64,000 nucleotides of DNA from a virus (taxonomy: Duplodnaviria > Caudoviricetes), in the IMG/VR virus record IMGVR_UViG_3300035510_000379, positions 7,727 through 71,726 of that record. The stretch is one strand, 5' to 3'. Shown in pieces: positions 23,801 through 42,800 of this stretch. The stretch's first letter is position 1. Each line of letters starts with the position of its first letter. The notes below the pieces were generated by a model, which was given only the letters and a program-made list of their open reading frames with translations, made no database searches and had not been told where the DNA came from. The position numbers and the translations under genes are program-made.

Positions 23801-26800
23801 CGATAAATGGTCGCACAGCTTATTGCCTACGCCAATTAATCCTATATCGCCATTATTATATTTAGCTGACCCGTATTGGCTTGAAAATAAGCATTATAAC
23901 GACAGACCTTATGCTGTAAGCGGTCCGATGTTTGCAGAAGAAACTCCTTGGGGAATAGCTTTAAATAGTACGATAGGTCAAATCATTAAGCCTGTCAAAG
24001 AAATGCACAAAGACAGGCTATATGACGGCGTAGACGTTAAAGCTATGGCGTATGCGATGAATGAACGCATACGCGAAAAAGCTATTGAAAACAGCGGCGG
24101 TTATAGAGCGTCATTTGACGATGACGGCAGCATATCTTCAATAAGAAATATAGCTTATAACGCACCAGACTTAGAAACCAGACTTATTAATATATCAAGT
24201 TCTGGCGATGGTCGTACAGTTAATATAGATATTGGTGGCGATTACGGCAGCGGATACGGTCAAAGACTTATTTCTATTAATAATAGACCAGATTTCTCTA
24301 AAAACGAAGGATACTCTGGATATGGTTCACGCAATATAGGCGAAATAGGTATAGGCTATGGATATGGCGACGGCAGTGATGGCAGCGTAGGCTCTAACAT
24401 TGGTTTATCTTTAATAGCCGATGAAAACAGAAGTATAAGAGTACAGGCATCTCAAAATGCAAATAACAGCGTACAATTAAACGAAAGACTGTCATATACC
24501 AAAAGCATAGCTGCTGATAAAATAGACCAAGGCGAAGATGTAGAGAAATTAATTAATCAAGCTAGAATAACCTCTTTATCTGGTATAGCGGAAGAATCTG
24601 CTGTATCAGCACGATTAATTACAGGTATATATGGCTACGGCGCAAATAGATTTTTTGGATTCGGTGAAGAAAATACTAAGATAATAGCTAATGCCAGTGA
24701 TATGACTTCATTTTCTCGTTCATTTTGGGATATGTCTATCGGCGGCGTTGGCGGCGGCGCAATGGAAATATATCGCCGTTTTATTCCTGAATACAGACGC
24801 AATAGGCGAGTAAGCCCATTAATGAATGAAATGCCTGACTGGCTGCCATTAAGATATAGATTTGGCGACCCGTATACGGCAGTACCAGATGGCGAAGCCC
24901 GTATGCCCGGAGAAGGTTACGAATCATTAAATAATCTTCACCCAGACGCTTATGGAGCATATGGCGCATTTGACAGATATAAAATACTTGCCGATATTGC
25001 TCCTTATTCAAAAGAATTTAAAACTTGGAAAGCTATTGCTAAAGCTACTATACAAGATGAGCGTCTTGTTAAAGAAATGGACGCTATCCAAAAGCGTGCC
25101 GATGAGCAGTCTAAAACGCATGACTTTTATAATTATAGATTTCTAGGTCAAGACGTAGATTATCAAAACGCTATAATTAAAAACGTATACGCAAATGGCG
25201 CATTTACAGTATTCGGTTCTGACGAAGTATATAAATTAGCTGGCGTTGATTTTACCGATGATAATTTTGTCGCGCAGTCCAAAAATATATTAAAACAATA
25301 TATTAACTCTGGCATGAGTGTTACTTTAGCCGTTGACAGCAATCCGTATACAAGAACTTCCGATGATTATAAGAAATCAGTAAATGCGGCAGTATTTGTA
25401 GATGGCGAAAATGTATCGCAAACTTTATTAGATGAAGGTTTTGTTGAAAAACGAAAAGATAATCTAAATGCGGCTGACATTGCGGCTATGCACGGAACAT
25501 TCGGCATTATGGAAGGTACGGCATTAGAACTTCTAACTCATGTAGATTTGCCTTTAATAAGCGACAGATGGCTAAGAATTAGAAGTCCTTTAGAATCATA
25601 TAAAGCCGAGCAAATATACGGCACTCCTTATCAAACATGGTCTGATATTACAGGTACATTCGTAATGCCTGCTATTGAAAGAGCAATATCTGACGGCTCA
25701 TATTCTGCTTTAAGCACTATGAGTTTTATAGGCATGAATATGCTGCATGATAAGCAAGGCATAGGCAAAACAAGCAAAATAATGCTCAGTGCCGCTATGT
25801 CATTAACTAATAGAGGCGCATTTATAGGCGGTGCTATAAGCTATGCTATTAACGCTAACGGCAGAGGTTTTGCGACAGGTCAGAAAATAGGCGCGGCGGC
25901 TATGCTTGCAGGCAGTCTTTATTCAAGCGTGAGAGGCGATAGTCTAGCCGACAATATTATGTCTTGGGGAACAGCGGGCTTATTAGTCGGTGATTTCTTA
26001 GACGAAACAAAAGCTGCTATAAAAGATAATGATTCGCTGACTAAAAAAGCACTTAGAAGTTTTGAGAGCGTAGAGTTTAGAGGAAAAGCAGCTTTAATAG
26101 GCGTTGCAGCAGGTTTAGCTTCTTATGGATTATCAGCACTTGGCGGCGACAGAGGACCGTGGATTCCCGATAGAGTAAAAGAAAAATGGGAAACAGAAGA
26201 ATACTTCGACAGGCTCAAATACGTTAAATATATGGGTATGTATAATAAAGCTAAAGAATTAGCTAAAAGCGAAGATGATATAGATTTAGATGAAATAATT
26301 AATTATAGAAAAAGTCAGCAAGCACTTGAAAATCAGATAAGAGAAGAATCTGATGCAAATGCTCCTTGGTATTATAAATTAAAACATCAAATATCTAACG
26401 CTATCCATAAAAACGTAGATATGCCAAGCGACCATAGATTTGAATATGACGATGGATTCAGTATAGAAGATTTGCCCGGAGTTCATAACGGCGTATTCGA
26501 TTCAACGAATATAACGCCAGAAGAAAGGCTATATACTTTAAATGCTCTCGCAACGCAAGGCATTAAGCACAGCAGTAAATACTCTGAAAATGAAGAACGC
26601 GACATGACAAAAGTCAAGGATTTCTTAGATTTGCATAAAACAGAGCAATTAGACGGCTATGAAGTCCATCACGTTGTACCATTTTCAATGAACGGCAGCG
26701 ATGACCCGTCAAATATGATTATGCTATCGCATGAGGACCACGCATGGATTACGAACGAGCATAAAAAGTACTTTTACGGCGAAAATGCCAACGCAACTTT

Positions 26801-27485
26801 AAGCGAATCTGTGTTAGAGCAGGCTGATTTTTTAGACCAAAGAGGCAAAGCCGTAACAAGTTCTGCTCATGTAAGAGAAGCGTTATTATATTTACAGACG
26901 GCAGAAGAAACTATGTATAGCGTAGCTGAACGAAAAGAAAGCGACTGGATAGATATAATTAAGGCTTTGCCTGCTTATGAAAAAGATTACTATAAAGAAT
27001 TTAAAGACGAAAAAGACCCAAGCAGACGTGAAGAAATATTAAAATACGCATCGCCATTTCAGAAACGCGCATTACTTCAAACATGGAAACAATTCGATGA
27101 TACTGACGACTTAGAAAGCAACGAATCCTATTTTGGACACAATAATCTGCCTAATCCGTTTTGGGAAGGTTGGAAGAACGATGTAGATTTAAATGACGTT
27201 AAAGCTAAAATGGTTAAAAACGAAGGACAGCTATTTAGCGATTTTAATATATATGAATCAGAATACAGAAAGCCAGAAGTCATTAACGCTCCATTTTTAA
27301 AGAGAAAAGATTCGTCAAACGCTATTGCCGTAAAAGCGAGATTAGAAAGTGCTTTGAGCGGTTTAGGCTTATCTGAATCAGACGTGAGCGTACAGCCATC
27401 ATCTACAAGCGGAGTGCAGGCGGTAATAAATATAATGACAGTCAGCTCATATAATTTAAAAGAATCTATCAGAAGTTTATTTTAA
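20883..27485 (+). CDS. Giant virion/ejection protein (2200 aa) with degenerate SNase-like region, hydrophobic Gly-rich helices and HNH motif
   Basis: YKLAGVD..NVSQTLLDEG (SNase-like, ~25160-25450); several A/G-rich hydrophobic segments (~25700-26150); EVHHVVPFSMNGSDDPSNMIMLSHEDH (HNH, ~26661-26741). Start may be TTG 20895 (AGGTGG at 20881). Confidence 0.6.
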   Translation: MALFLKDEVKEEQNRSLADKLTDVLGTAAAVSTTAAFLYRGIGGRNLSKLFDTGASSFRVITDEISSTRYKDYSLKRLREMSAKIKQDIKTERAKINAGIAEPRVNAKDSLAEKLGHMYQLLKAPDVFKRRLYNDLYLITPALENSKKLLDSVNATQAERRELEAAIRRLPYVINDKKHAEEKIQQIRDSIKVKDSQRTDIIKQALDLSVNVMRNQMSGKTTSFRAVSGKLDNAIEQIKSELFNLDTLSKEQNKGSIIDKALDDNRAKVRDILSKKNKDKVRLGTSSYLDAQGEPVYYDRRVALEEIQKYILDNKPEDYEKFLNLSIDSYLRKDANGEIYSFSRTAGLFDKAMQIASNTLPGKILKLQDIRQTKLSSSVVYVPSGSVDPLLSGAVEGQLDRTRQSYVRIYNKTFSINQAGELTHEEQFDNATLMSGRYGGLGKQIRKMSGLEGERQTDSWIRNFFDINKTNELNYFERIGSIFTKNRDTDYIPNVLKAIKEGSLDSIQSLFEMTSQVEMLMQASVKPLSLSQVRRLAEQEANNADLALLNAIKSNDLTSTVEELLGYAQHTDNAFQNTGLIDLLKSYSKDSAAALQRVTTRRNTNPNYYSTLNNSIGFEEELKTELSKEYFLRKVIHGGDVESTAFTELKNLLEQSDIGDVYEAKRTGYAAILQYMSGISKKEYSTSTIENQVREAEALYIRSILRGETQDEGKQDLKKIIEQTVSDVYGKFDMSEKLPDNSFADAALNNFVHVKNMITPLDVIRDLNDNARNGKETAFKFVEQFFAGRDNPEAVTSLTFYPYFMLSRLGDDLNNLGLGFSNDSTKNFLSLAKTIGLKRILPVAVGATYLEFTDDTAQALFGTGIAATAVNGAANVDLFARKVADFTGIQSFLDNQFDLNPALQYWGGKDGFYTYDEEKDYYENGYTPVRKGRYWWFGSSNEVRGGQIQYWTPNLVRKLNSDYYDKSMYDGYFDKWSHSLLPTPINPISPLLYLADPYWLENKHYNDRPYAVSGPMFAEETPWGIALNSTIGQIIKPVKEMHKDRLYDGVDVKAMAYAMNERIREKAIENSGGYRASFDDDGSISSIRNIAYNAPDLETRLINISSSGDGRTVNIDIGGDYGSGYGQRLISINNRPDFSKNEGYSGYGSRNIGEIGIGYGYGDGSDGSVGSNIGLSLIADENRSIRVQASQNANNSVQLNERLSYTKSIAADKIDQGEDVEKLINQARITSLSGIAEESAVSARLITGIYGYGANRFFGFGEENTKIIANASDMTSFSRSFWDMSIGGVGGGAMEIYRRFIPEYRRNRRVSPLMNEMPDWLPLRYRFGDPYTAVPDGEARMPGEGYESLNNLHPDAYGAYGAFDRYKILADIAPYSKEFKTWKAIAKATIQDERLVKEMDAIQKRADEQSKTHDFYNYRFLGQDVDYQNAIIKNVYANGAFTVFGSDEVYKLAGVDFTDDNFVAQSKNILKQYINSGMSVTLAVDSNPYTRTSDDYKKSVNAAVFVDGENVSQTLLDEGFVEKRKDNLNAADIAAMHGTFGIMEGTALELLTHVDLPLISDRWLRIRSPLESYKAEQIYGTPYQTWSDITGTFVMPAIERAISDGSYSALSTMSFIGMNMLHDKQGIGKTSKIMLSAAMSLTNRGAFIGGAISYAINANGRGFATGQKIGAAAMLAGSLYSSVRGDSLADNIMSWGTAGLLVGDFLDETKAAIKDNDSLTKKALRSFESVEFRGKAALIGVAAGLASYGLSALGGDRGPWIPDRVKEKWETEEYFDRLKYVKYMGMYNKAKELAKSEDDIDLDEIINYRKSQQALENQIREESDANAPWYYKLKHQISNAIHKNVDMPSDHRFEYDDGFSIEDLPGVHNGVFDSTNITPEERLYTLNALATQGIKHSSKYSENEERDMTKVKDFLDLHKTEQLDGYEVHHVVPFSMNGSDDPSNMIMLSHEDHAWITNEHKKYFYGENANATLSESVLEQADFLDQRGKAVTSSAHVREALLYLQTAEETMYSVAERKESDWIDIIKALPAYEKDYYKEFKDEKDPSRREEILKYASPFQKRALLQTWKQFDDTDDLESNESYFGHNNLPNPFWEGWKNDVDLNDVKAKMVKNEGQLFSDFNIYESEYRKPEVINAPFLKRKDSSNAIAVKARLESALSGLGLSESDVSVQPSSTSGVQAVINIMTVSSYNLKESIRSLF

Positions 27486-27524: not shown

Positions 27525-30500
27525 ATGGACATGAACTATGTAGGAAATGTAAATAGCTCTCTTACCACATTACATAAAACTTTAAACTGGATAATGCACC
27601 AAGACAATAAAACCGATACAGAAAAGCATACAGAAGCGATGGTTGCAATAGCGCGTCCTAACTTTGCTAATCTCTCAAGATATGCAGGCATGAAAGGCGG
27701 CGTTGTCAGCAATTTTAAGAAAAATGCTTCGTATGACATTATTCCAGAGATTGAACAAAAAGAAAATGAAGTAAAAAGAGCAGTATATAATAGTTCCTCT
27801 GTTCGTACCATGTTTAATTTATTATCGAATCCAGCTAAAAATATTGCTCCTTCCGTTCAGTCGGCACAAGATTTCTTTAAAAAATATACCAGTGCCGAAT
27901 ATACCATACAGGTTGATATAAATAACAATAACGCTGTAACTACTAAAGATAAGATTATTTCTGGCATAGAAAATATAGCAAGCAAAGGCTATAAAGCTGC
28001 GTTTATGGACTTGGAAACGCTCGGCAAAGGCGATATAACTGACTTTGCTATGTCGGTATTTTCTTTAGACGAAAATGGCAAATTAGTCAAAGACGAAAAC
28101 GGCGGCAATATCAACGTTGTATTGGGCGTACAAGAACGCAATAAAGGCACTTATAGAAATATAATAGAAAAACGTTTCAGGGGCGAAAGATTAATCGGCG
28201 ATGAAAAAGTAGTATTCGACCGTTTAGCTTTAGCGTCCTCTACAAAATCAATAATTGATAAAAAAGATGGCGTATACTTTTATTCTTCATTTGCTGATAA
28301 AACGGACGCTGATGTAGTCCGCCCAGACAAACAGCGTATGATTGACGCTTTAGACGAACTCGTAAATATAAATGCAGAATATAAAAAACAATCACTAATA
28401 GACTTTAAAGGCACAAAAGTCCTTCCTATTGAAAGCAAAATATTGCAGGCATTACAGTACGTCAAAGACAATGATTTAACAATAGCCGCCCATAATGGTA
28501 TACAGTTTGACTTTCCACGTTTTGATTCATATTTTTCAAACAGCGAGAACGTAACGCATAATATGGTCGATTTAATGAAAGATTTGAACATGGCAAGTCA
28601 GCAATCATTTGATTCGCTTGCTATGCAAAACGTATTATTTCCCCGTTCGCAAATGGAAAGATATTTGATAAACCATGAAGAACTTGCTAAAAATTTAGGA
28701 GCACACGGCACTACTCTAAATACAGTAACAGGCTTAATGCTGCAATTAGATACGTTACCTCTTAACAGCAATAAAAGCATAAATGAAGAATTGCTAGAAA
28801 GAAGAAATTCTGCTGTAAATATAGCTAACCACGTTGCCGACCAAGACATTCAAGATATGGCAAGAGCCGTATTAACGCATTTAAAAGTTAATCCTAGATA
28901 CGAGAAAGCCATTGATAAAATACGCAATTCAAAAGAAAATACTACTTTAGGTATTGGTGATGTATTTGTAGTCAATAATCCTAATATGATTGATTCTTCT
29001 GGTAATGGCATGATTACATTCCAAAGGGATTTGTATTCTGGCGATTTAAGATTACAGGACGGCTTTCAGATTAAAAATATAGATAGCCAAATACCAATCG
29101 ACAAAATGGCAACTCCATCTGACGTGCAATTTAGACCATTTAGTTTTAAAAAGGATGTGGCTTATGAAATTAAAAGCATATCGAATTTTGAATTGCCAGA
29201 CAGCGCATTAGCAGAATTAAGCAGGTTAAATGAAAACCTAACGAGCGGAAAAGATTTATTTTCTATTGAATTTCAAGAAGTAAGACAAAATCCAAGCAAT
29301 ATAAACACTAGAAGTTCTTCGCCTATTTTTATGGTAGGCACAAAAGACGATATTCAGCGCAGAATGGGACGTTATTTCGATTATGCTTTTACGTTTAAAG
29401 ATGAAATAACTAAAAACGTTGAAACTGGTGAAGAAACCTCTAAGCGCATTATAACTAACACAAATAACGCATCTAAAAAACTACGAAATAATTTTCCTAT
29501 ACGCTCAAATCCAGAAGGAAATTATTCTTATGATGTTGAAGGCTTAATAAATTTATCAGAAACGGTATCTAATGAAAAATCAGCTATAAGATGGATAGGC
29601 GAACACGACAGCTTTAGCAAAGCTAAAAAAATAATGACGCTTATCGACAGCATCAATGAAGAAGTTGCGCAGAGAAAAACACTTCCAGAAGGCAACCCAT
29701 TACTTGAAAGAGCAAATATCAATAATGTTTTAGACGACTTAATAAACGTGTCAAACTCGCAAGGCTTTGCAATAGATAAGCGCGCAGTGGGATTCTTGTC
29801 TAATAATTTTAAGCCTATAACAAAACCAGACGGTACGTTAGACTATAAAGACGCACAGAATTTCTTATTTAATTTATTTAAATACAGAACCGCAAACGGC
29901 ACAACTTTAACGAGCAATACGATAGACAGCGTAGCTGAAAATGTATCGTATTATAATAAAATGGCTCACATCGTAAATCCTGTTCTTAAAAAAGCGCAAG
30001 AAATGGCTGCTAATGTCGGTGCAGAAAATAACACAAATGTCTTAAATTATTATTATAAAAATTTAATGACGCAGGTAATGAGCGCACTATCGTCAGACGA
30101 CAGAGTTATTAGAGTTAAGCAAGAACCGATTACTCAAGCACAACGCAATACGGCTTATTTTGATATGACGAATGTATATAATCGCAATCATAAATTTAAA
30201 ATACAAGCATCAAATGATATGCAGAAACGCGTGCTTGGTATAAATTTAGATACGAATAGTAATCAGTTTTTTGGTTCTGAATTAGCTGATATATATGGCT
30301 TAGATAAAGATTCCGCAAAAGATAGAGTAAAAGCTATTAAATTATTTGCTAGAGAATATTCTTTTGAATCATTAGGCGATTTAAAAACTAATGAACATCA
30401 GTCAGAGGAATATTTATCTGGTCTTATCAGACGAGAACTTTTATTTATCCGTAATGAAAAACCTAACGCATTTTTTGACTATGATTTGGCAACTCGAATG

Positions 30501-33500
30501 CAAAAAAAAGGGTACATTAAAACTCCTTGGATTGCGATAAACGGATTAAATCCTAACATAGATTCTTCTGTATCTCCAGAGCAAAAAACAGAAACAGTAA
30601 ATAAAATAATAAATACGGTCGCAGGAAACATACCTAGAGTAGATAACACGACCGCTTTCTTTAAGAAATTAAATCCTGAATCCACTCCCCAAGATTATAT
30701 TGACAATAAAGACGCGGTAGAAAATTTAGTAGACCAAGCATTAGATATTTTATCAGCCGATGGAAGAAAAGTAAGAAAACTTGGCAAAGATGCCTTAATG
30801 AATACATACGGCTATAATGAACATACAGCTAATATTATTTTGCAAAATGCAGCAACAAGAGAAAAAGATACACAAAAATTATTAACTGAATTATTTACCT
30901 CGTTAGCAGGCAACGGATTTCAGATAAGCGTTAATAATCAAGCAGGCAAAATCGGCATACTAAATTCAAAAGACGAAATATTAGATATTACAAATAACTT
31001 GCCTATTGATGTATTCAATGAAAAATTCGGCTCTTTATATACGAGAATAGGTAAGCAGACAATGGCATCGCCGTTAGCCATTTTACGAAATAAAGAAAAG
31101 CATTTAATTCTTGGCACAAATATTTTAAAAGCATTACAGAATAATAAGCATTACCTTAAAAGACAGCGCGACCTTTTAGATACTGACGATGATGCTTTTT
31201 TAGGAGCGCAGTTATTCTTTAAAAATATGCGTGAAGATATGGCTGTATATGCAACTAACAGCATGGACGCAAAAGAATCTAAGCTAACAAGAATGTTAGA
31301 TATAAGCGATTTTCTTGAAAACATCGGCGAGTACGCAATAAACAGCAGTCAAAACGGATATTTTAGAAAAGGATACGAAAACGATTATAAAGAATTTGCT
31401 GATTTATTAAATAAAGCCGCAAATGAATACCATACTGACGGAAAAGTTTCTAAAAAGACGGAAAAGACTATAACTGAATACGTTAAAATGAGTCCTCAAA
31501 TATTTATGGATTCGCTTAACATTGAAAATGAAGATATAAAAAGAGAAGAAAGACAATTTTTAGAAGAAGCGGTAAAGCGCGCAAATATGCGCACAAAGGT
31601 AGTTAAAAATCCGTATGTTTCAATATCTGACGAAATTACATCTCCATTTGCCCAGTATGGTTTAGATAAACGCGGCGTATACGGCGTAGCTGACGCAGCT
31701 TTAGAATTTGATAAAACAGCTTATGATAACGGATATGTACCAGAAGGATTAGAATTTGGTACAGGAATAAATACAGCGCAAGGATATGCTTACGAAAGCC
31801 CTAAAACGGCTAATGCTAAAACAGCAAATAGGGCAGCTAGAATTAATAGACTAAGTATGTCAACGGCTTCTTTCATAAAGATAATGTCCAGTGATGAGGG
31901 ACAGACTTATCTTCGTTCAGCGGTCAATAATGACGAAGCAGCTTTCGGCAGAATAGTAAGCCGTATCGAATCTGTATTCTTAGAAGAAAATGGCGGTATA
32001 GTATCTCCTAGATTATTGGCTCTCGCTCCAAGCAGCTCTACTAAAAAATATGATTTTGACAAATTAAATATAGATGGCAAAGTACATGGCGCAGCAGGAG
32101 AATTATATGATGATTTTTTAACAAACATCGTTAATTCAATTAGAATAAATAGGAATGCCAACAAATTAATGCTCGACACATCTAATATAAAAATACCCAA
32201 AGATGTGTACGTTAGCGAAGGGCAGCTTATTGGTACAGGTCTTAACTTTGCTATGAGCGAAGAAACTACTAAAGCAGTCCGTGAAGGTATGCTTGGTATG
32301 AAGTTTGTCGATAAAAAGACAAAAGAGGTAGTTGACAATGCCGTTATTCAAAATAGAATAACAGAAGCACTATTAGAGAAAAGCAGCAGCGAAATAAAAG
32401 ACGCTGTAACTAAATTAATAGCAGGCATAGGCGACCAAGAACATATCTTTGCTCAAGTAAATGAACAGATTAAACAGGTCATTAACGATAACTTTAGAAT
32501 ACAATTCCATTTAAAAGAAATTGACGCGCAAGGTATGCGTAAGATGGTAGAGGCTTCTGAAAAAATAGAAGCCAACGCTATATTGGGCGGCATTGGTGAT
32601 TTTGATTCTAAAATAGCAAACGTCTTTAAAAAAGGTCCGAACGCTGTTAAAGATATGCTTGGCAAACAATATACGGCAAACTTTTTATCAAGCGCAGGAG
32701 ATTTTGAAGGAGATTTCTGGACTAAGATAGAAAGCCAGACTTCCGAAAAAGATTTTGACAAATTTGTCCGCAGTATTTATAAAAACTTTGGCGGTAAGAA
32801 AAAAGGCTTAAATAATTTTGCACAAGCATTACTCAATGAACAGGAATTAGCATATAAAGCTGTAACAGGATTATTGGAAGAACAAGGCTTTATTGAAAAA
32901 GATAAGCCAGTTCATTTAATTTCTAATTTATTGCCGTACAGATTAAAGCATGGCGAAGCAAGCGGCATACTATACACCACGTTTTTAAATGCTTTAGAAA
33001 AGCATAAAGAAGATGGCGGCACTGTTAAAGGCTTTGTTAAAGAAGTGAATAATTCTGGCATATTCTCGGCAAAAGACGCACTTAAAGCACTCGATAACGG
33101 CAATATATTAATAACAGACAGCGGTGAACAAGCCAGTGTAAATATAGATAATTTAAATAAATTTATCACGAAATATGGCTTGCAAGATTTAGCTAAAGAA
33201 AAAGACGGCATTATGTACGAAAATGCTAGAACCATGGTTAGCATCGCGCATGATGAAAACAGATTAGGCGATAAATTTAAGTACACTTGGCGTTTGCATA
33301 ATAACTTAATACAGCAAAAATATAATGACGATGTATTACAAAATGTATCCGATAAATTAACTAAAGCGTTTGGCGAAGAAAAAGGTTCAGCTATATTTAG
33401 TGAACTTTATCAAGGTATTGCTTCATTTGACGACAATAATAAAATTGTTTTATCTGATGAATCAAAGCAAATGCCTATACATCAAGTATTAAGCGATTAT

Positions 33501-36500
33501 TTCCAAAATGCTATTAAGCAAGGTTCTGGCAATACCTTTATAGAATACGATACTAAAAAAGGCTATTATTTTACGAAAGATGAAGATGGAACAAGAACTA
33601 AGCATTATGGTATTGCTGATAATGGCAAAATGCTTATTGACGTCAACGGCACGGTAAGTAATGTTGCTAAAGGCAGAGCGTCATTTGCAGGTTTTAATGA
33701 AGAAAGCATAAATAATTTAGTAGACCATTTTAATGATTTAGGACAGTCCAATATATCGCTTGAATATGCTTTAGGAGTACATTCAGAAGCTACATATGAA
33801 GCTGCTAATAAATTTAATAAAATGAGTGCTAAACAGCAGGAAAAAGCCTTGGAGCGAATGGCAGGCGGCGACAATCCTTCATTCTCTCTTATAAATGTAA
33901 ATGACTTAGACGTTAAAGCAGGCTTTAATTTTGGTAACGAAAATTCTATTTTCGGCAAAGCCATGATTATAGACTTAGGCGAAAACGCGACAAGCGCATT
34001 ACAAGGTCAATACGTTAAAAACCAAGCAGAACAAGACGCAGCCAGAGAAGCCTTAATAGAAAAATACCAAGCGGCTTACGCGAATAAAGGATTAGACTTC
34101 GATATTGAAAATCCTCAAATAAAGCGTAAGATAGAAAATCAATTACCTATTATAGGCGAAAGCCCAAGACGATATATTGCTGTCGGTTTCGATGCCACTA
34201 AGTTTATGGACGATGAAGGCACTATTGAACTTAGAAAGCAAGTAGCGTCTGATATAACAGGTCTTGTAAATGCAGTATCGCGCTATAACGATGATGTAAT
34301 GGAGGCTGCGGGCGACCCTCTGTTAATGCCTAAAACTAATTATATAGCTAGGTCTTTGGATAAACTTGCATCTTCTGTCGCCGCAAGAGCGGAATCTAAA
34401 AAAGGCGTTGCGGCAGAGAATATGTCTGTATATCTTGATAATTCTGGACGCTTTAAAGGCGGCATTATTAGAACTTTAAGCGGCAGTGGTTTTGACAGCA
34501 GTGAAGGTTTATTAGGCAGAGCATTATACAGAGGACAAGATTTAACTACGCTTGCTAATAAAGGTCTTGAAGTAAATGCGGCTTTCGTTGGTGAAGATTT
34601 TGTCAATAGAGTATATGCGCAGGACGTAGAACAGTTAAATTCTATATTCGGCAAAAATACTATTTCATTAGATACCGTTAAAGACATATTAAAAACCGAA
34701 GGTACAAATGCTACCGCTTTACGTTATCCGGCAATATATACTGGCTCTATAACTCCTTCTAAATTATACTTGGGCGAAAATTTAGCAAGCAACCAAGCAC
34801 TGTTTACTGAATCAATGGCAAGAGCCATGAAACTGGATATGGACGGCGATACTAACTATATCCATGTAAATAAACAGTTAGCAGATGTTACAGCACCAAT
34901 ATACTCTAAAGATGGCTCTATATCATCATATAAAACCGTATCTATGAATCTTGATTTATTAACGGCTAGAGCGTTAGAGAATAACGGCAAAGGAATACAA
35001 GTACAATTTAGGGATAATGGAGAATTATTTAAAAGCATGGAAGCAGGCAGCCTTGCTCATGCAGAAGGCGGATTACAGCATTATGCAGGCGAAGTATCAA
35101 AACTCGTTGAAGATTTTTCGTTATCAGTACCGCAAAATTCTGGTTTAAGTCCAATAGACGTAACAGAAACTACTAAAGCAGGCATAGCTAAAACTGTATT
35201 CAATAACACTTTATCGCCGCAGGTATTCTCTAATCAATTATCTAACGAAGCTAACGGAAATATGTATGCTGCTTATATGGACGTAGCAAAAGACGCAGGC
35301 ATATATAACCCAGAGGAAGGAAACTTCTCGCAGCTTAGAAATGCCGAAGTCATTAAATCAAAAGGTCAAGACTATTTAGCTGAATTAATGCAAAATCCTA
35401 ACATAGATAACGCAACAAAAGAAAAAAATGCTATGCTGTTAGGATACGGCTATAACTTAGCTAGAAACGCCGAAGAAGTATCTGGTAAATTAGCAAAAGA
35501 TATAACTGGTTTAGTAAACTACAATACTAATATGGTTCGTGTTTTGGCTAATGACATGGCGGCATCAGGCTATGCGCCAGACTTTACCGAAAAAGATAAT
35601 ATTATCGTAAATAAAATAATGCAGGGTATAGATGAAAACTTCCAAGCTGCTAAGAATACTACTAAAGACGTTTCTAATGCTGAATTTAAAACGGCAGAAG
35701 ATAAAGTCGGTGAAGCTGTCGGCAATCTATTGTCCGTAAATTATCAAAATGCAAATAGCGAAAGCTACGATAAGCCTAATGATACAGCTACAATATGGAA
35801 AAGACAAAAAAGACGCGACAGGTTCTTTGATTATTTGTTTAATGATTTAAATATATTTGATACTAAAGAAATTAAACAAGCGAATAACCCAGTTATAAAT
35901 GAGTACATAAATGCTAAAAGCGAAGGGAATTTAGCTGCCGAAGAATTAGATAAATTAAGAGTAAACGCAGAGCAGGAAGTTAAAAATGCTTTTAATCATA
36001 TGCTCCCAATCAACTTTGATTTGTCGCCAAGCTATAAAAATTCCATAAGATATGCGTCAGCTACTCCAGAAAATGCGTCTAATGTAGAACCTATTGCCTT
36101 AGAAGAATTATCTGGCGATGGCGGCAAAACCGCCCAAGCAAGACATATTCAAGAAGTATCTGGTTATGCGGATAGAATAGGTCTCACATCAGAAGAAGCA
36201 CCTCATGCCAGAATGGCTAGAATGGGTACGCAGATCACAGGCGAAATAATAGACAGAGCGAAACAGTCTGCGGAAGAAGAAGCCGAAAAACAGCAAAGAA
36301 TATCTAAAGGCTATGAAAGAGCAGTCGAAGAAGAAGCACCTCGGCTTGAAACTTCATTTTCGCAGGATACTTTAAGGTCTGTCGGAAGTTCAGTCGAGCG
36401 AGCGGTAGAATCATTAAAAGGCGTTAAAAGCATAGGTGTAAAATTAGGATTAGGTTTAGCAGCAGGATTAATAGGCGCAGGCTTTGTTGGCGGCAATCCT

Positions 36501-36794
36501 TCTGAACCTGCTGACGGTATGGCAAGCGGAGTAAGTGCAGACCAAATCAGAAGCGGCAATTATGCTGTTCCTGATTACTCTGGCGGCATTAATCAAGGCG
36601 CACCAGCTGGCTACGTTATTCATGTAAACGGCAATTCAAGCCAAGGCAGAGATGCAGTACAGAACGCAGTAAACCAAGCCTTCTCACAAACTTTTAATAC
36701 GCCTAACGTCAACTTAACTATGAACATACAGAGCAGTTCAAGTAATATTTCCAATAGAGATATATTGCGACATATAAGCGATTTACTAAATTAA
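27525..36794 (+). CDS. Putative single-chain two-barrel RNA polymerase (virion-associated) with N-terminal DEDDh exonuclease domain, 3089 aa
   Basis: Beta'-like LDNSGR (34437), LRYP (34719) and KLDMDGDTNYIHV (34830); beta-like EENGGIVSPR, VYVSEGQLIG, GMRKM..EK and PVHLISN upstream; DLET/HNGIQFD/HVADQD exonuclease motifs; C-terminal hydrophobic segment. Confidence 0.75.
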   Translation: MDMNYVGNVNSSLTTLHKTLNWIMHQDNKTDTEKHTEAMVAIARPNFANLSRYAGMKGGVVSNFKKNASYDIIPEIEQKENEVKRAVYNSSSVRTMFNLLSNPAKNIAPSVQSAQDFFKKYTSAEYTIQVDINNNNAVTTKDKIISGIENIASKGYKAAFMDLETLGKGDITDFAMSVFSLDENGKLVKDENGGNINVVLGVQERNKGTYRNIIEKRFRGERLIGDEKVVFDRLALASSTKSIIDKKDGVYFYSSFADKTDADVVRPDKQRMIDALDELVNINAEYKKQSLIDFKGTKVLPIESKILQALQYVKDNDLTIAAHNGIQFDFPRFDSYFSNSENVTHNMVDLMKDLNMASQQSFDSLAMQNVLFPRSQMERYLINHEELAKNLGAHGTTLNTVTGLMLQLDTLPLNSNKSINEELLERRNSAVNIANHVADQDIQDMARAVLTHLKVNPRYEKAIDKIRNSKENTTLGIGDVFVVNNPNMIDSSGNGMITFQRDLYSGDLRLQDGFQIKNIDSQIPIDKMATPSDVQFRPFSFKKDVAYEIKSISNFELPDSALAELSRLNENLTSGKDLFSIEFQEVRQNPSNINTRSSSPIFMVGTKDDIQRRMGRYFDYAFTFKDEITKNVETGEETSKRIITNTNNASKKLRNNFPIRSNPEGNYSYDVEGLINLSETVSNEKSAIRWIGEHDSFSKAKKIMTLIDSINEEVAQRKTLPEGNPLLERANINNVLDDLINVSNSQGFAIDKRAVGFLSNNFKPITKPDGTLDYKDAQNFLFNLFKYRTANGTTLTSNTIDSVAENVSYYNKMAHIVNPVLKKAQEMAANVGAENNTNVLNYYYKNLMTQVMSALSSDDRVIRVKQEPITQAQRNTAYFDMTNVYNRNHKFKIQASNDMQKRVLGINLDTNSNQFFGSELADIYGLDKDSAKDRVKAIKLFAREYSFESLGDLKTNEHQSEEYLSGLIRRELLFIRNEKPNAFFDYDLATRMQKKGYIKTPWIAINGLNPNIDSSVSPEQKTETVNKIINTVAGNIPRVDNTTAFFKKLNPESTPQDYIDNKDAVENLVDQALDILSADGRKVRKLGKDALMNTYGYNEHTANIILQNAATREKDTQKLLTELFTSLAGNGFQISVNNQAGKIGILNSKDEILDITNNLPIDVFNEKFGSLYTRIGKQTMASPLAILRNKEKHLILGTNILKALQNNKHYLKRQRDLLDTDDDAFLGAQLFFKNMREDMAVYATNSMDAKESKLTRMLDISDFLENIGEYAINSSQNGYFRKGYENDYKEFADLLNKAANEYHTDGKVSKKTEKTITEYVKMSPQIFMDSLNIENEDIKREERQFLEEAVKRANMRTKVVKNPYVSISDEITSPFAQYGLDKRGVYGVADAALEFDKTAYDNGYVPEGLEFGTGINTAQGYAYESPKTANAKTANRAARINRLSMSTASFIKIMSSDEGQTYLRSAVNNDEAAFGRIVSRIESVFLEENGGIVSPRLLALAPSSSTKKYDFDKLNIDGKVHGAAGELYDDFLTNIVNSIRINRNANKLMLDTSNIKIPKDVYVSEGQLIGTGLNFAMSEETTKAVREGMLGMKFVDKKTKEVVDNAVIQNRITEALLEKSSSEIKDAVTKLIAGIGDQEHIFAQVNEQIKQVINDNFRIQFHLKEIDAQGMRKMVEASEKIEANAILGGIGDFDSKIANVFKKGPNAVKDMLGKQYTANFLSSAGDFEGDFWTKIESQTSEKDFDKFVRSIYKNFGGKKKGLNNFAQALLNEQELAYKAVTGLLEEQGFIEKDKPVHLISNLLPYRLKHGEASGILYTTFLNALEKHKEDGGTVKGFVKEVNNSGIFSAKDALKALDNGNILITDSGEQASVNIDNLNKFITKYGLQDLAKEKDGIMYENARTMVSIAHDENRLGDKFKYTWRLHNNLIQQKYNDDVLQNVSDKLTKAFGEEKGSAIFSELYQGIASFDDNNKIVLSDESKQMPIHQVLSDYFQNAIKQGSGNTFIEYDTKKGYYFTKDEDGTRTKHYGIADNGKMLIDVNGTVSNVAKGRASFAGFNEESINNLVDHFNDLGQSNISLEYALGVHSEATYEAANKFNKMSAKQQEKALERMAGGDNPSFSLINVNDLDVKAGFNFGNENSIFGKAMIIDLGENATSALQGQYVKNQAEQDAAREALIEKYQAAYANKGLDFDIENPQIKRKIENQLPIIGESPRRYIAVGFDATKFMDDEGTIELRKQVASDITGLVNAVSRYNDDVMEAAGDPLLMPKTNYIARSLDKLASSVAARAESKKGVAAENMSVYLDNSGRFKGGIIRTLSGSGFDSSEGLLGRALYRGQDLTTLANKGLEVNAAFVGEDFVNRVYAQDVEQLNSIFGKNTISLDTVKDILKTEGTNATALRYPAIYTGSITPSKLYLGENLASNQALFTESMARAMKLDMDGDTNYIHVNKQLADVTAPIYSKDGSISSYKTVSMNLDLLTARALENNGKGIQVQFRDNGELFKSMEAGSLAHAEGGLQHYAGEVSKLVEDFSLSVPQNSGLSPIDVTETTKAGIAKTVFNNTLSPQVFSNQLSNEANGNMYAAYMDVAKDAGIYNPEEGNFSQLRNAEVIKSKGQDYLAELMQNPNIDNATKEKNAMLLGYGYNLARNAEEVSGKLAKDITGLVNYNTNMVRVLANDMAASGYAPDFTEKDNIIVNKIMQGIDENFQAAKNTTKDVSNAEFKTAEDKVGEAVGNLLSVNYQNANSESYDKPNDTATIWKRQKRRDRFFDYLFNDLNIFDTKEIKQANNPVINEYINAKSEGNLAAEELDKLRVNAEQEVKNAFNHMLPINFDLSPSYKNSIRYASATPENASNVEPIALEELSGDGGKTAQARHIQEVSGYADRIGLTSEEAPHARMARMGTQITGEIIDRAKQSAEEEAEKQQRISKGYERAVEEEAPRLETSFSQDTLRSVGSSVERAVESLKGVKSIGVKLGLGLAAGLIGAGFVGGNPSEPADGMASGVSADQIRSGNYAVPDYSGGINQGAPAGYVIHVNGNSSQGRDAVQNAVNQAFSQTFNTPNVNLTMNIQSSSSNISNRDILRHISDLLN

Positions 36795-36805: not shown

Positions 36806-36846
36806 AACGGCAAGAAACGAGCAATATTCTCATCTTGCCGTTTTTT
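36806..36846 (+). terminator. Intrinsic terminator after the polymerase-like gene
   Basis: aacggcaaga (36806-36815)/tcttgccgtt (36833-36842) followed by a T tract. Confidence 0.7.
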
Positions 36847-36885: not shown

Positions 36886-39800
36886 ATGAGCGAAGTTGTA
36901 AATTCTACAAGCGTCCTGCCAGATATGAGCGATTTTTATTATGACGCACAGGACGGCTATCAATTCGTTAAAACAGATAAAATATTTAAGACAACCGATA
37001 TAGCAAGTGCCGCAGACGGCAAATTTTATACGGAAGAACCGCCAGACTTAGGCTATAATTCTCAATATAAAGTCGTATGTGTTCAATATTATAAAAGTAA
37101 TGACGGAATAGGCTCTTATGACGAACAGTTTATTGACGGCATGAAAGTAGTCGATGGCGACACTATTTATTTTAATGTCGATAATTTTAAATATGGCGAT
37201 GATGAATCTAAAAAATATATAGAAGAAATAACACAGGCTAATTTAAAAACGGCAAATGACGCATTAGGGAGTAATCCAGATTGCCATGCAGGCGTACTCA
37301 TAACACGCTTGGCTTTTATAAATGCCGCCGAATTGCCGCATTTTGATGCTGTCGGCACAAGAGATAGTTTTAGCAGCGATATAGATATTAAAACATTAAG
37401 CTATTCAGACGTAGCTAAAAGCGGCGATTATATCTATTCTAACTATAAATCATTTATGAGCACTGATAGTTCAGCTAAAATACCTACGAATTTTACTGAC
37501 AAAAGCAGTATGAATAGTTATGACACTAAATATAAAGATACCGATACGCTTTCTTTCGTGAATGTAGGCAACAAAAAACTTCGCCAGTGCTTTACGAAAA
37601 ACGGCAATTTATATCTTTTAACTACGCAGGACGAATCACAGCCTGCAACTATTGCTGACGCAGGATTAGCCCGTGATTTAGTAGTCAGTGCATTACATCA
37701 AGCTACTGAAATAAGAATAGCGATTAACCTTTCTACTTTAGCAAAGTCTGCTGACATGGCAGAAAAAGTAGCTGAATATAAAGACAGTGATAATATCTTA
37801 ACAGCTATTACAAAATTGTATAAAGGCTTTAATGGCGATTTGCCGCGCTTTTTAAGCGTAGGTTTTAATGCTTTAGGCTTAGATGCGTATGGTCGTGCAG
37901 TGTGTGTAGTATATTGCAAAGTGGGCGGCATATGGATTAATATCAATAAATTGGTTATATGCAAAACACCTAAATCAACGCAAAATACCGATTTTACCAT
38001 GAGCGATATGTTTGACCCGTCAAGCTATCAATATGCTGACAAAGTATATGCAGATAACGTATATTCAGCAACAGCAAAAAATGACGACAGGTTAGTAGTT
38101 CATGGTAAAATATCTAAATTAGCCTCTATTGAAGCCATGACTAATTGGAGCGTATTGCTAGGCGATATTTTATTATTAGTTCCTCCAACGAGCATTAATA
38201 AAGTAAACATGACTAAATCGGAATACTTGCAGCCAATGCGCGCGAGAGGAAAGATGTTTAAAAACTCATGCAAGACGCAGGAATTAATCGAAATGGAATT
38301 ATATTTCTGCGGCGATACTGGGATTAACGGCACTCCATATGAAGTTACTCTAAACGGCAAAAAACTGACTTATTATTTAGACGGCTTGCGCAGTCTAATA
38401 GCACAATTTAAAGTATGCCCATTTTTGCCTATCCAAAATGAATTTATAAATGACGTTTTGCATATACAGGCTGTTACCTTATCTTCGATAAATATAAGCA
38501 CAGTGCCTATGTACCCAAAGCTGTTAAAAGTAAATCTGCAATTATCTGACTTTGATTATAGAGTATATATGCCTGAAATTCCTTTAGAAGAAGATGGATT
38601 AAGCGACAAGAATTATTTTGCTGAACAAATATATTATCCTTTAATGCGTTATTATTATCAGCGTATGATAATGGACGGAGAACGCATTAAAGATTTAGAA
38701 TTTAATTCTAAGGAATATATAAATAAGGCATCTGAAACGCATGATTATTACGTTAAAACGTGCTTAGAGCCAATGAAGTTTAAAGATTCGACAGTGCGTT
38801 TTTACGTTCCAAATAAAGAAGCACTGGACATTAAAAAGCAAAAAAAAGTTCAGCAGTTGCAAGACAGTACCACTATGACCTTCGACAATACGGACAAAGA
38901 GTTAGTCGGAGAATTTAATAAAATAACGACAGCTTTAGATTCGTTTAAAAATAGCGATGAATGTAAAGCACTCGACACTTATAACAAAGATTCCAACACA
39001 GATTATGAATTTTACACAGGCGGAACACCAGTTTTGGATTATTTAGACGAAGCAATTTCATATGCTTCAGGTGGTTGTTATTTGTATATTGTAAACAGAG
39101 AAAGCAAGCAAATTGTTGCAGTTAATTGTGATAACAGAATTGACGCCGCTGTTGAAAAAGTTAAAAGCGAAATGCAAAATGCGACAACAAAAAGCGGTTC
39201 ACCGTTATGCGAATGTATAGGCACAACTCCGCTAACGTCAGTAATATCGTCTGATGGATCGTATGTTACGGTAGGTCGTACAGTAATGTTTAAGATAAAC
39301 ATAGATACTGTCGGAAAAGAAACTTCATATAAAAAATTAAAAGATACAGCAGCAACAAGCAATAGCGGAACTATAACGGCAGACGAAATTTTTAAAGACA
39401 ATAAAATATCTTATCGAATTTATATAACATTATACAGGAACGGCGACTATGGTTTAGGGCTGGCAGTCTACGCTTTGCAGTGCGGTACGGATAATGCTTG
39501 GAGTTATGAGGTTGAAACGGAATCGACAAAAAACTTTTTGCAATATTGCTCCGCTTTAGGCAATAAAAGCGAATTAAATCAAGACTTAACAAATAAAAAT
39601 GTATCGGCTACTGTCGACTGGGAAACAAATGACGGTATAGAATACGATTTATATAATGACGGCTCAAACTTAGTAGTTACTAACTGTACTATGAGTATGT
39701 CTAATACTTTTACGAATATTACCTTACAATCGACAAATGGTATTGCTCCTCAATTTATGGGCGGTTCAGAAGTAGCTATTAATATGACAATAACTACATG

Positions 39801-42800
39801 GGATAGAGATGTCGCATTAGCTTTAGAAAATCTTCCTTCTCTAACAGCTACATTTGCCCGTGAATATCATATTATAATGTCACAATGGGGGCTAAGAATG
39901 GATTGCGAATTAACCCGTTTCTTAGGCGTGAATGACGTTATTATAGATACAGTCCATGTAAGCACAGTACCTAATTTCCCTAATCTATATCAAGTAGACA
40001 TGGTTCTCTATTCTACTGATAGAAATTTAAGAAACCGCGAAATGCTTAAAAAATCTGAAATAGATAATTTTAAAAATGTATATACGAGCGGTCAAACGCA
40101 GGTAAGGGCATGGGAATATAGCCAGATAGATACCCTTTTATCGGAAACTGAATTATATCCAGATTTAGAGCTACCTACGATGAAAGAATTAAAAGATATG
40201 GGTTTTGAATTTTTAAGATACAGCAACGAAAAGCGAAAATATCCAGACCCAGATTTTTATTTTATATATGCTCATGTATTAACTTCGCAGTTAATAAGAG
40301 AATCTGTATTAAATTCTGTTGATATAGATATGGATAACTTTGATGTTAAATCTCCTAATGAAGGCGTTGACGTAACAAATAAATCCTCTGCTGATGCAGA
40401 AAAACAAATGCAAGAAGAATTTCAGTTAGGCAATACAGAACTGCAAGAAACGTACCAGACGCAAAAAAATAAAGAAGCCGTCAAAAATGCGATGACTTTT
40501 ATTGCGCAGCCAGAGAACTCAATAGAAGAAATATGGGTTGTATGTCCTACAATAAAAGTAGCGTTAGCTGAAAAGAATATAACCAATGAAATGACAGTAT
40601 GGTCTAAAAAAGATTATAATCAAACGTATGAAGAAGCCAACAAAACAAAATACGCATCTACTACAACAGAAGAAAATTCTTCAACGACAACAACGACAGA
40701 TACAGACAGCTATATTTTCAATAACGTACAATCTGTAAAAGAAAAAGTCTATGAAAATATAGATAATTATTTAAAAAACCCTATATCTGAATCTTCACAG
40801 CAAAGTAGTTCCGAAGGTGATTTCATTTTCCCTTGGTCTGATTTATGCTCAATATTAAAACCTATGGGTGTAACTACATTTAATGATGAAAGCGGAACAG
40901 CTGCTACTACGGCTAACGGAATGGTTTATGCTGCTGCGGCTGCTATGACAGGCAGACAGGAATATAATAAAGCTTCAAAAGATACGAGATGGAAACCTTA
41001 TCTTCGCTATTTTGAATATATAACAAGCGATTCAAAATATCCTGTTGGCTATTACGGCACAGCGTCAGAAGTAAGCAAAATGAAAGACCTGCTAGTAAAC
41101 GAAGGCGACAGCCGTTTAAAATTAGAGCAAATAAAGTGCTTTGGACCGTTCAAAATGCGTTTCTACACAATGGTGGAATATTGCGCAATTACTGACTTAT
41201 CTGTCGCGACAGATGAAAACACGCATACTTTTAAAGATATGTATTTACTTGACCCGTATTATACTAACGCTGAAGAAAAAGTTATTAGAGAATATATATA
41301 TAATTGCTGTACGAATACAACTTATGCGACAACGGCATTTTTTAGAATAGTCCTTGTATGGTTCAAAAAATTAATAAGAGATAATATAATTCCTTCGTAT
41401 GCTTTTGATATGCTCCGCGGAGTATTAAAAGATTCCGACAATATAGATACAATTTTAAAATCATTAGGTGTTTCCAATGCGTCAACTCTTTCTAAAACGT
41501 ATCAAGAATACTTTGCTAAAAACAGTAAGGCTTTAGATAAAGGCAAATTGTTAATAGCTATTCTCTGCGCTTTATATGGCTCTACAAATAACAAGTTTTA
41601 TACCAATTTGAGAAATAGAGATTATACTAACTTGGGAGCATTAACTAACTCTACATTCTCCGATAATAAAGCACCTAAAGATAATAGCGAAAAAGATACT
41701 TTATTCCGTAAATACAGCCTTGCCTTAGTAGGCAAAGGAGTAGTTGACAATGTAGATTTAGGTTCTGCGGGCAAAGGCAATAGCGATACTCCGTTTGTTG
41801 TAGACCAAAAAGAAAGAATGGACGAAGAAGTAGTTAAAGCAGGCAACGACCCGAAAAAATATTTATTGCATAGCTTTTATGATATGGTAGCGTATGATTG
41901 TCGAGGCAGAATGCTAAGAGCATTTCCAACGTATTATATGGTATTTATTGATGAAGGACGGCAAATTGGCGCATGGAAATTACACGATAATTTTTATACC
42001 TCAGCTTCAATTTCTGGCATTACAATTACTAAATCAAAAAATATTGCGGCAGATACGGCGCAGGTAACTATGTCGAATTTCTTTAATATTTACACCTCTG
42101 ACGATACAGAAATGAATTATAGCTATATCAACAATTATTCTGACATTATTCGTTCAATATGGACGCCGAGAGTACAAGAATACGCAGAAGAAGCAGAACA
42201 GATACGCTCTCAAATGAATAGTCCGACAGAAAGAGTTAAATTAAGAGCAGGTATCCGTATGCAGATAAGAATAGGCTATGGCTCTGACGCATCGGTAATC
42301 CCTGTAATGTTTAACGGCATGATAACTGACGTAGAAACCAATGAGGTAGTATCTTTTATTGCTCAAGGTGATGGCGCGGAATTATCAAAGCCATTATTGT
42401 ACGATAAAGACGCAATAGATATTCAATCAGACAATGACTTCTTTGGCACTTATACTTCAAGCGGCTGTACTCCGCAAAATATATTGAGAAGTATTTTAAC
42501 GAGTAATGGCTCATATATAAATACAGCAGCTAAAGGCACAGAATATGAATATTGGGCAGACGCTATTGGCACTCCTATGAATCCATACGGCATATATCAT
42601 TTTGGCGAAAAAACATTTATGTATTTCAATGATATGAGCGAACCATGTCAAAATATATTTGAATGTGGCATGGCAAGAAATCCCGCAAAAACTAAATATA
42701 ACTTTGTAAGTGAATATGAAGCCGATAAACAGCTCACTATTGACTTTCATTTATTCGGCAAAACTATGTGGGACGTTATGCACATCTGTCAAAGTGTTCA

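Follow-up and report, generated by a model that had tools for sequence, protein, structure and literature searches.

Predicted catalytic barrels of a single-chain RNA polymerase in a giant tail-module protein of a contractile-tailed phage

The window analysed here is a stretch of 64,000 nucleotides (nt) from the IMG/VR virus record IMGVR_UViG_3300035510_000379 (positions 7,727 to 71,726). It carries three consecutive giant genes in a phage tail module, and the middle one, a single open reading frame (ORF) encoding a protein of 3089 amino acids (aa), is the subject of this study. Judged from AlphaFold models and structure searches, this protein very probably holds the two catalytic barrels known from cell-type RNA polymerases (RNAPs). 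We hold with fair confidence that it is a single-chain two-barrel RNAP which is carried in the virion, ejected, and used for transcription of the first phage genes. The assigned parts of the gene and its product are the following.

27525..36794, + strand: the 3089-aa ORF (P0001), one open frame encoding a giant multidomain protein.
27972..28874, + strand: motif set of a DEDDh-type (DnaQ-like) exonuclease, aa ~150-450, assigned at motif level only.
31962..33254, + strand: beta/Rpb2-like region with the second double-psi beta-barrel (DPBB-B), aa ~1480-1910, predicted from an AlphaFold model and structure searches.
32541..32564, + strand: K1673 ... E1679-K1680, an invariant lysine pair in a predicted beta-hairpin (15 members; model strands 232-237 and 240-245).
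34212..35072, + strand: beta'/Rpb1-like region with a helical hairpin and the catalytic double-psi barrel (DPBB-A), aa ~2230-2516, predicted in the same way.
34722..34730, + strand: R2400-Y-P2402, the R-x-P motif, 38 residues before D2438; neither R nor P varies in 18 sequences or in the 15 full-length members.
34836..34850, + strand: D2438-M-D2440-G-D2442, the predicted metal-binding DxDGD loop, with three Asp invariant in all homologues.
36429..36494, + strand: a single transmembrane-like Gly/Ala-rich helix, aa 2969-2990 (Kyte-Doolittle), in which G2977, A2979 and G2986 are invariant.
36582..36791, + strand: C-terminal domain, aa ~3020-3089, which ranks with the best-conserved stretches of the protein (conservation profile, alignment A6).

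The beta'-like region was modelled with AlphaFold over aa 2200-2700 from 18 sequences (model m7b877001ed98; predicted local distance difference test score (pLDDT) 75-92 in the core, mean 64), and the barrel proper is located at aa ~2290-2460. A Foldseek search of the PDB with this model returned 423 matches at E<=1e-3, the top ones being all beta'/Rpb1-type chains. VIA-align gave Z values of 10.4-11.2; on 6rwe_A (residues 476-666 of the Pol I subunit A190) the model was superposed with Z 10.9 and a root mean square deviation of 2.1 A over 105 residues. In a wide search carried out independently of Foldseek on 48,161 representative chains, the best 11 were all largest subunits of RNAP, and gp96 of phage P23-45 was matched over its DFDGD barrel with Z 8.2. 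Matches in BFVD comprised viral RNAPs, crAss-like giants, a 'minor tail protein' and a protein of Acinetobacter phage ME3. By hhalign, the DMDGD loop was placed on E. coli beta' 450-472 (NADFDGD) with a pairwise E of 0.006, the catalytic loop being the only part to align. Two marks of the two-barrel superfamily are thus seen in this region: a DxDxD motif lying, in the predicted structure, in a DPBB-A barrel, and an invariant R-x-P ~35-45 residues ahead of it. The equivalent R-x-P residues are R446/P448 in Rpb1 and R962/P964 in QDE-1 (PMC2919709). A long helix follows the barrel at low pLDDT (model residues 301-333), and no structural match extends over that part. N2665 and K2710 also lie downstream of the barrel, and K2710 belongs to the invariant residues described below.

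The beta-like region was modelled over aa 1440-1990 from 12 sequences (model m769ce319fba2; mean pLDDT 75). In the wide VIA search of the 48,161 chains, the best nine were all of beta/Rpb2 type with Z 5.9-7.8 (Vaccinia virus, African swine fever virus, Pol IV, AR9, Pol III, the plastid-encoded polymerase, Pol I, phiKZ and Xanthomonas), and generic double-psi barrels came next. No Foldseek match reached E<=1e-3 (best 1.9e-3); 50 of 50 among the matches listed were chains of the second-largest, beta-type RNAP subunit. When Foldseek's own matches were aligned with VIA, 120 chains had Z>=5, and again 50 of 50 among the matches listed were beta-type. On E. coli beta, residues 1-471 of the model cover positions 800-1237. 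By the alignment tool's own warning, such Z values count as middling. The fold matches carry weight because the tops of the lists hold only the matching subunit, and because one region matches beta and the other beta', in the correct order.

The two basic residues expected in DPBB-B may be the invariant lysines K1673 and K1680, which would be equivalent to K979/K987 of Rpb2 (residues from PMC2919709). In the superfamily, a second barrel with two basic residues is either N-terminal on the same chain or on a second subunit; here it is predicted, with moderate strength, N-terminally on the same chain. For the insert that separates the lysine hairpin from H1809, the model shows helices and not a beta sandwich of the flap type. 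E1488, considered for the fourth catalytic carboxylate of DPBB-B, is Glu in 11 of 12 sequences and Asp in one, and is conserved in 13 of the 15 full-length members. Alignment of the beta-like profile A4 with E. coli beta by hhalign was not significant (E 0.13) and gave another register.

Homologues were collected by an exhaustive phmmer search of 1.84 billion representative proteins. It gave 11 matches, including P0002, a 100%-identical 1501-aa fragment of the query protein. Seven further homologues were obtained by a profile search, and a later profile of the beta'-like region with longer lengths added only P0022. A first word-indexed homologue search gave no matches, and a pattern scan of IMG/VR found no relatives. 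The family is rare (~20 sequence clusters); its members have 2.7-3.1 thousand residues, apart from truncated fragments, and reside on contigs of up to 216-272 kb.

The full-length alignment of 15 members, which share 16-38% identity, has 25 invariant positions out of 3089. These are D162, E164, D329, D363, H436 and D441 in the N-terminal part; K1673, E1679, K1680 and H1809 in the beta-like region; R2400, P2402, S2408, D2438, D2440 and D2442 in the beta'-like region; K2710; G2977, A2979, G2986, Y3030 and A3052 in the C-terminal helix and domain; and G201, G1895 and A2094 outside any assigned set. The D-x-D-x-D triad is invariant in 18/18 aligned homologues, and in 16 of them exactly one such motif is present with Gly or Ser at position four. 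The original prediction of an RNAP in this gene had made conservation of DxDGD a test of its reading, and this was borne out: the three Asp occur in every homologue found, and the Gly is replaced, by Ser or Thr, in only three. By chance, a DxDGD would be expected in ~1 in 20 proteins of such size (a rough estimate from typical residue frequencies). The pattern goes beyond chance because the three Asp are invariant in 18 homologues and stand among the 25 invariant residues. Of eight signatures that two-barrel RNAPs have in common, three are R-x-P, DxDxD and two basic residues (PMC2919709).

If the resemblance of motifs were fortuitous, and the AlphaFold models were drawn to RNAP by the DxDGD loop, then the failure of sequence searches to detect an RNAP, the shallow alignments and the middling Z of the beta-like matches would all be explained. 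We consider this exceedingly improbable, since two independently modelled regions hit two RNAP subunits in the right order with 150-215 aligned residues each, and the model of the beta-like region cannot have been biased by a DxDGD loop, which is absent there. The pattern of 25 invariant residues also speaks against it.

The motif strings on which the original prediction had been built were all found in frame on the + strand, LDNSGR and ALRYP lying one codon away from the coordinates given for them.

nt 31983, + strand: EENGGIVSPR, aa 1487.
nt 32202, + strand: DVYVSEGQLIG, aa 1560.
nt 32499, + strand: IQFHL.
nt 32532, + strand: GMRKMVEASEK, aa 1670.
nt 32907, + strand: PVHL..YRLKHG, aa 1795.
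nt 34434 (given earlier as 34437), + strand: LDNSGR, aa 2304.
nt 34716 (given earlier as 34719), + strand: ALRYP, aa 2398.
nt 34830, + strand: KLDMDGDTNYIHV, aa 2436.
nt 36435, + strand: the hydrophobic GVKLGL...GG, aa 2971.

Three of the four strings that had been likened to beta hold an invariant or nearly invariant residue, and R2400, P2402, K1673, K1680 and H1809, all invariant, are situated in or beside the listed motifs. The register obtained by hhalign for DVYVSEGQLIG differs, non-significantly, from the one proposed earlier. The proposed order of barrels on one chain, beta followed by beta', agrees with the subunit hits of the two modelled regions, each of which is predicted to contain a double-psi beta-barrel in an RNAP-like setting (Foldseek and VIA). 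The structural matches to beta were weaker than those to beta', as seen from the Z and E values above, and the residue equivalences of the four beta strings with E. coli beta are putative.

The placement of a single 3089-aa gene in a myophage tail module was likewise correct. The contractile-tail module around the gene is real: portal, a protease-like gene, major capsid protein, sheath, two tube-like genes and small chaperone-like genes are found 5' of the three giants, and a small spike-like gene and the baseplate wedge gene 3' of them. The 3089-aa ORF is preceded by the Shine-Dalgarno-like GAGAAGGGA. Its surroundings in the window are as below.

11109-14192: tail sheath.
20883..27485, + strand: upstream giant gene, 2200 aa, with an HNH motif near aa 1924-1953, in the slot of 0305phi8-36 gp145.
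36809..36846, + strand: GC-rich hairpin resembling a terminator (cggcaag...cttgccg) and, after it, a T-run, directly 3' of the stop codon of the 3089-aa ORF and between the second and third giants; read by eye.
36886..45063, + strand: downstream giant gene, 2725 aa, a baseplate-hub homologue (phrog_20474, E 5e-185; tblastn to 0305phi8-36 ORF147, annotated as baseplate hub, E 2e-28).
48389-49177: baseplate wedge.

The source record is an IMG/VR contig of 71.7 kb with a CheckV completeness of 31%, which suggests a jumbo phage. Synteny with 0305phi8-36 would point to a host of the Firmicute type, as the original prediction had it. Toward the C-terminus, every giant has a single transmembrane-like segment (aa 1736-1754, 2969-2990 and 2340-2376, in gene order; Kyte-Doolittle scan). 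In one relative, the homologue of the upstream giant (L011:1-896) carries Pfam marks of an intein and LAGLIDADG.

At 11/11 homologue loci, the gene is flanked by genes of ~2100-2600 aa and ~2700-3150 aa and is placed, in the same order, between tail chaperone-like genes and the hub. In 0305phi8-36 the order is tube paralogue, gp142, the chaperonins gp143/144, gp145, gp146 and the hub gp147. According to GenBank notes, gp145 and gp146 of this phage were found in virions by mass spectrometry, and gp146 is annotated as 'hypothetical tape measure'. The assignment of orf146 as tape measure was made by correlation with tail length, and only its last 60 residues are conserved in the lineage (PMC2147016). 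When the conserved C-terminal domain of the 3089-aa protein was compared with the last ~85 residues of gp146, hhalign gave an E of 0.0015 and BLASTP an E of 0.31. The same C-terminal profile compared by hhalign with the upstream giant and with ME3_36 of Acinetobacter phage ME3 aligned the hydrophobic helix alone, without significance. The C-terminal domain is a probable module for attachment to the virion or tail, and by analogy with gp146 the 3089-aa protein probably travels in the virion; its role would be to initiate transcription of the phage genes.

The position between tail chaperone genes and hub is that of a tape measure, in a slot shared here by two giant genes. Both modelled regions are globular and mixed alpha/beta, where a tape measure is expected to be mostly extended helical. 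The slot appears to combine a conserved C-terminal anchor with exchangeable enzymatic cargo, because only the C-terminal ~85 residues and the helix are common with gp146, which has no polymerase region. In the present clade, which is uncultured, the cargo would be an RNAP core plus an exonuclease-like domain. When gp146 and the middle genes of Moorella phage MTATph1 were examined as possible RNAP carriers, no RNAP region was found in them by BLASTP, hhalign, tblastn and motif scan, and they were rejected as such.

A structural protein of the tail lumen, or tape measure, whose polymerase-like part is an inactive relic serving as scaffold, would suit this slot, which in the 0305phi8-36 lineage is that of the assigned tape measure, and the counterparts in 0305phi8-36 and the Moorella phage manage without a polymerase region. 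Such a relic is very unlikely, as it would lose its catalytic residues first, and it is precisely these (DxDxD, RxP, two lysines) that have been kept without change among members of 16-38% identity.

The synteny bears also on whether the enzyme is delivered with the DNA. It is conceivable that an active two-barrel RNAP is made late and acts inside the cell, for instance in late transcription, or that it is present in the virion in a non-transcriptional role; the phage is known here from its genes alone, and the relative 0305phi8-36 has its YonO-like orf99 outside the structural module. We regard this as unlikely. The location of the gene between tail chaperone-like genes and hub at all the 11 loci, the membrane helix and the C-terminal module resembling the virion protein gp146 argue for delivery, and an enzyme made only late would be of little use to the next cycle unless packaged.

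Several observations weigh against a virion-delivered RNAP and were taken into account. No RNAP family was detected in the whole 3089-aa protein with Pfam and PHROGs, and phmmer of aa ~1426-2792 against PDB sequences gave nothing. The family profiles A4, A5 and A7 yielded only noise with PDB sequences. With tblastn, the beta'-like region had no match in 50,697 phage records, SPbeta-like phages and 0305phi8-36 included. PF05183 gave no match at E<=1 in the contig, in a search whose B. subtilis control was positive, and no Pfam hit at E<=0.1 was obtained in the protein. The case for the fold is based on AlphaFold models from shallow alignments (12-18 sequences) with mean pLDDT of 64 and 75, and the beta-like match is middling, with Z <8 and Foldseek E >1e-3. 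Bridge helix and trigger loop were not located after DPBB-A in the model of aa 2200-2700. The fourth catalytic carboxylate, which belongs to DPBB-B and is D837 in Rpb2 and D709 in QDE-1, was not located in the beta-like region. Globular enzyme domains fit a classical extended tape measure poorly. As gp146 is without a polymerase region, the virion location is deduced from the position of the gene and a weak C-terminal similarity, and the 3089-aa protein itself is known here from sequence.

For the virion-carried RNAP we propose the following course of events. The beta-like barrel would supply K1673 and K1680, and the beta'-like barrel R2400-x-P and the Mg-binding D2438-x-D-G-D. This core would be flanked by the DEDDh-type exonuclease-like domain at the N-terminus and by the membrane helix and conserved terminal domain at the C-terminus; the C-terminal module would fasten the whole chain to the tail or hub, in the place taken by gp146 in 0305phi8-36. 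On contraction of the sheath, the protein would leave the virion through the tail, and its C-terminal hydrophobic helix would then sit in the membrane and anchor the enzyme. The polymerase could thus transcribe the first genes of the entering jumbo genome without host RNAP, in the manner of P23-45 gp96.

The putative DEDDh exonuclease domain at the N-terminus is supported only at the level of sequence motifs. D162-x-E164, N324..D329 and H436-x4-D441 follow one another in the protein, and the five DEDDh residues (D162, E164, D329, H436 and D441) are invariant and in order in the 15 members. Pfam gave only a sub-threshold RNase_H_2 for the N-terminal region, and a profile search of PDB sequences with this region gave nothing. 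When A7 was compared with E. coli DnaQ by hhalign, the ExoI motif alone was aligned (E 0.22). An ExoI-like motif, DIETTG, is also present near aa 1217 of 0305phi8-36 gp146 (L013:8996-16609).

Exonucleases of the 3'-5' DEDDh kind on the same chain are typical of DNA polymerases, and the catalytic set is invariant here. The two-barrel enzymes, moreover, include PolD and the dual-activity QDE-1 (PMC10770324; PMC9508822). The protein might hence be a two-barrel polymerase of other specificity, either a PolD-like DNA polymerase or primase with DEDDh proofreading or an RNA-templated enzyme like QDE-1. This is quite unlikely: the top structural matches are all subunits of DNA-dependent RNAPs, and the pattern and spacing of R-x-P and DxDGD fit beta'/Rpb1. 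PolD, QDE-1 and phi14:2 gp66 are not among the structural matches listed, which is weak evidence and excludes none of them.

A further, tentative and rather unlikely idea is that polymerase and DEDDh domain act jointly on one chain as a new transcription machine, with a fused beta-beta' core of almost full size threaded through a contractile tail. The domain could possibly serve as a dedicated exonuclease for proofreading or transcript trimming, in place of cleavage of the Gre/TFIIS type, or it could possibly resect the entering genome end so that the enzyme makes its own single-stranded template.

Should the assignment as a virion-carried RNAP hold, the solution of fusing an RNAP to a tail protein would be extended to 0305phi8-36-like jumbo myophages, and the 'tape measure' slot of this lineage would be a site where enzymatic cargo is swapped. 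In addition, an RNAP core and an exonuclease-like domain would be covalently linked, and we found no earlier description of such a pair; in the literature, no paper was found on this family or on an exonuclease-RNAP fusion in a tail module. The finding is relevant to the start of transcription in jumbo phages and to the passage of large folded enzymes through tails, and it further illustrates RNAP diversity missed by profile searches, as no sequence method recognised the 3089-aa protein.

Virion-delivered two-barrel RNAPs have been established by experiment for crAss-like podophages (gp66), for jumbo phages of the phiKZ/AR9 type (multisubunit enzymes) and for one lineage of Thermus siphophages (gp96). 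Among the known systems, the predicted structure is closest to the multisubunit beta/beta' enzymes (cellular, of nucleocytoplasmic large DNA viruses and poxviruses, and the non-virion RNAPs of jumbo phages AR9 and phiKZ), and the top structural matches of both regions are to these enzymes. We make this placement tentatively, as AlphaFold could be biased to folds that it has met most often. The spacing LDNSGR - RYP - DMDGD is 94 and 38 residues, against ~78 and ~34 residues in E. coli beta'. From K1680 to D2438 the distance is 758 aa, compared with ~729 in a head-to-tail beta-beta' fusion (own arithmetic). Unlike the multisubunit enzymes, the protein has its predicted core on a single chain together with other domains; Pfam detected no RNA_pol family in it, and no sigma, alpha or omega partners are known for it.

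With YonO of SPbeta, orf99 of 0305phi8-36, the PF05183 family and the crAss-like phi14:2 gp66, the protein shares a single chain with barrel B preceding barrel A, and phi14:2 gp66 is, in addition, a giant enzyme delivered by the virion. The layout of YonO and crAss-like RNAPs suggested by the original prediction is therefore right as to the order of barrels; the predicted fold is nearer to multisubunit beta/beta' than to the YonO/QDE-1/crAss group. Membership in the YonO/PF05183 family was not detectable, with no PF05183 in protein or contig and no tblastn match in the phage records. In the protein atlas, a PF05183 phage cluster stands at rank 11 with a score of 0.87, and is noted as a lead only.

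The similarity to 0305phi8-36 gp146 concerns the position between the gp145-like and hub genes, the giant size, the C-terminal hydrophobic helix and the weak resemblance of the last ~85 residues to the C-terminus of the 3089-aa protein. In contrast, gp146 has neither an RNAP region nor an in-frame DxDGD, and the YonO-like RNAP of that phage (orf99) is a separate early-region gene outside the structural module.

Two other phage proteins were noted in the course of the searches. ME3_36 of the cultured jumbo phage Acinetobacter phage vB_AbaM_ME3 (L015:9723-14534; 1603 aa, the middle gene, annotated as 'hypothetical protein') has REP...GGDHDQD, an RxP...DxDxD pattern, and the ME3 entry in BFVD that matched the beta'-like model (E 6.5e-4) would be this protein. 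The RxP...DxDxD of ME3_36 and of the present family was aligned by hhalign without significance (E 0.13), and the beta-like profile gave nothing with ME3_36. The protein is noted as a lead only, to a possible tail-module RNAP in a cultured phage. A segment of the BFVD entry A0A8S5SD80_1 (Siphoviridae sp. ctnpt50, 'minor tail protein') matched the beta'-like model with E 1.9e-5 and may represent another tail-fused RNAP outside the Thermus lineage.

The nearest functional parallel is gp96 of the Thermus phage P23-45 (PDB 8H2M/8H2N), for which a virion RNAP fused to a tape measure has been shown (PMC10770324). Both are giant tail-module proteins with a DxDGD two-barrel RNAP, actual in gp96 and predicted here, and with one or more membrane segments. 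Both have almost no sequence similarity to other RNAPs, the DFDGD barrel of gp96 is matched by the beta'-like model as described above, and the role proposed here, that of an ejected enzyme transcribing the first genes, is the same. Sequence homology between the two was not detectable by phmmer and profile searches of PDB sequences. P23-45 is a siphovirus, and its RNAP is N-terminal in a protein of 5002 aa and has no clamp, whereas the present protein belongs to a putative jumbo myophage and has its RNAP in the C-terminal two thirds, behind the DEDDh-like domain, with ~480 residues from H1809 in the beta-like region to the start of the beta'-like barrel; its model is nearer to multisubunit beta/beta' than to gp96. 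The family thus seems to be one of virion two-barrel RNAPs fused into a giant tail protein, of the kind known from P23-45 gp96 and varied here by the jumbo myophage setting and the exonuclease-like N-terminus, and the family itself appears to be new.

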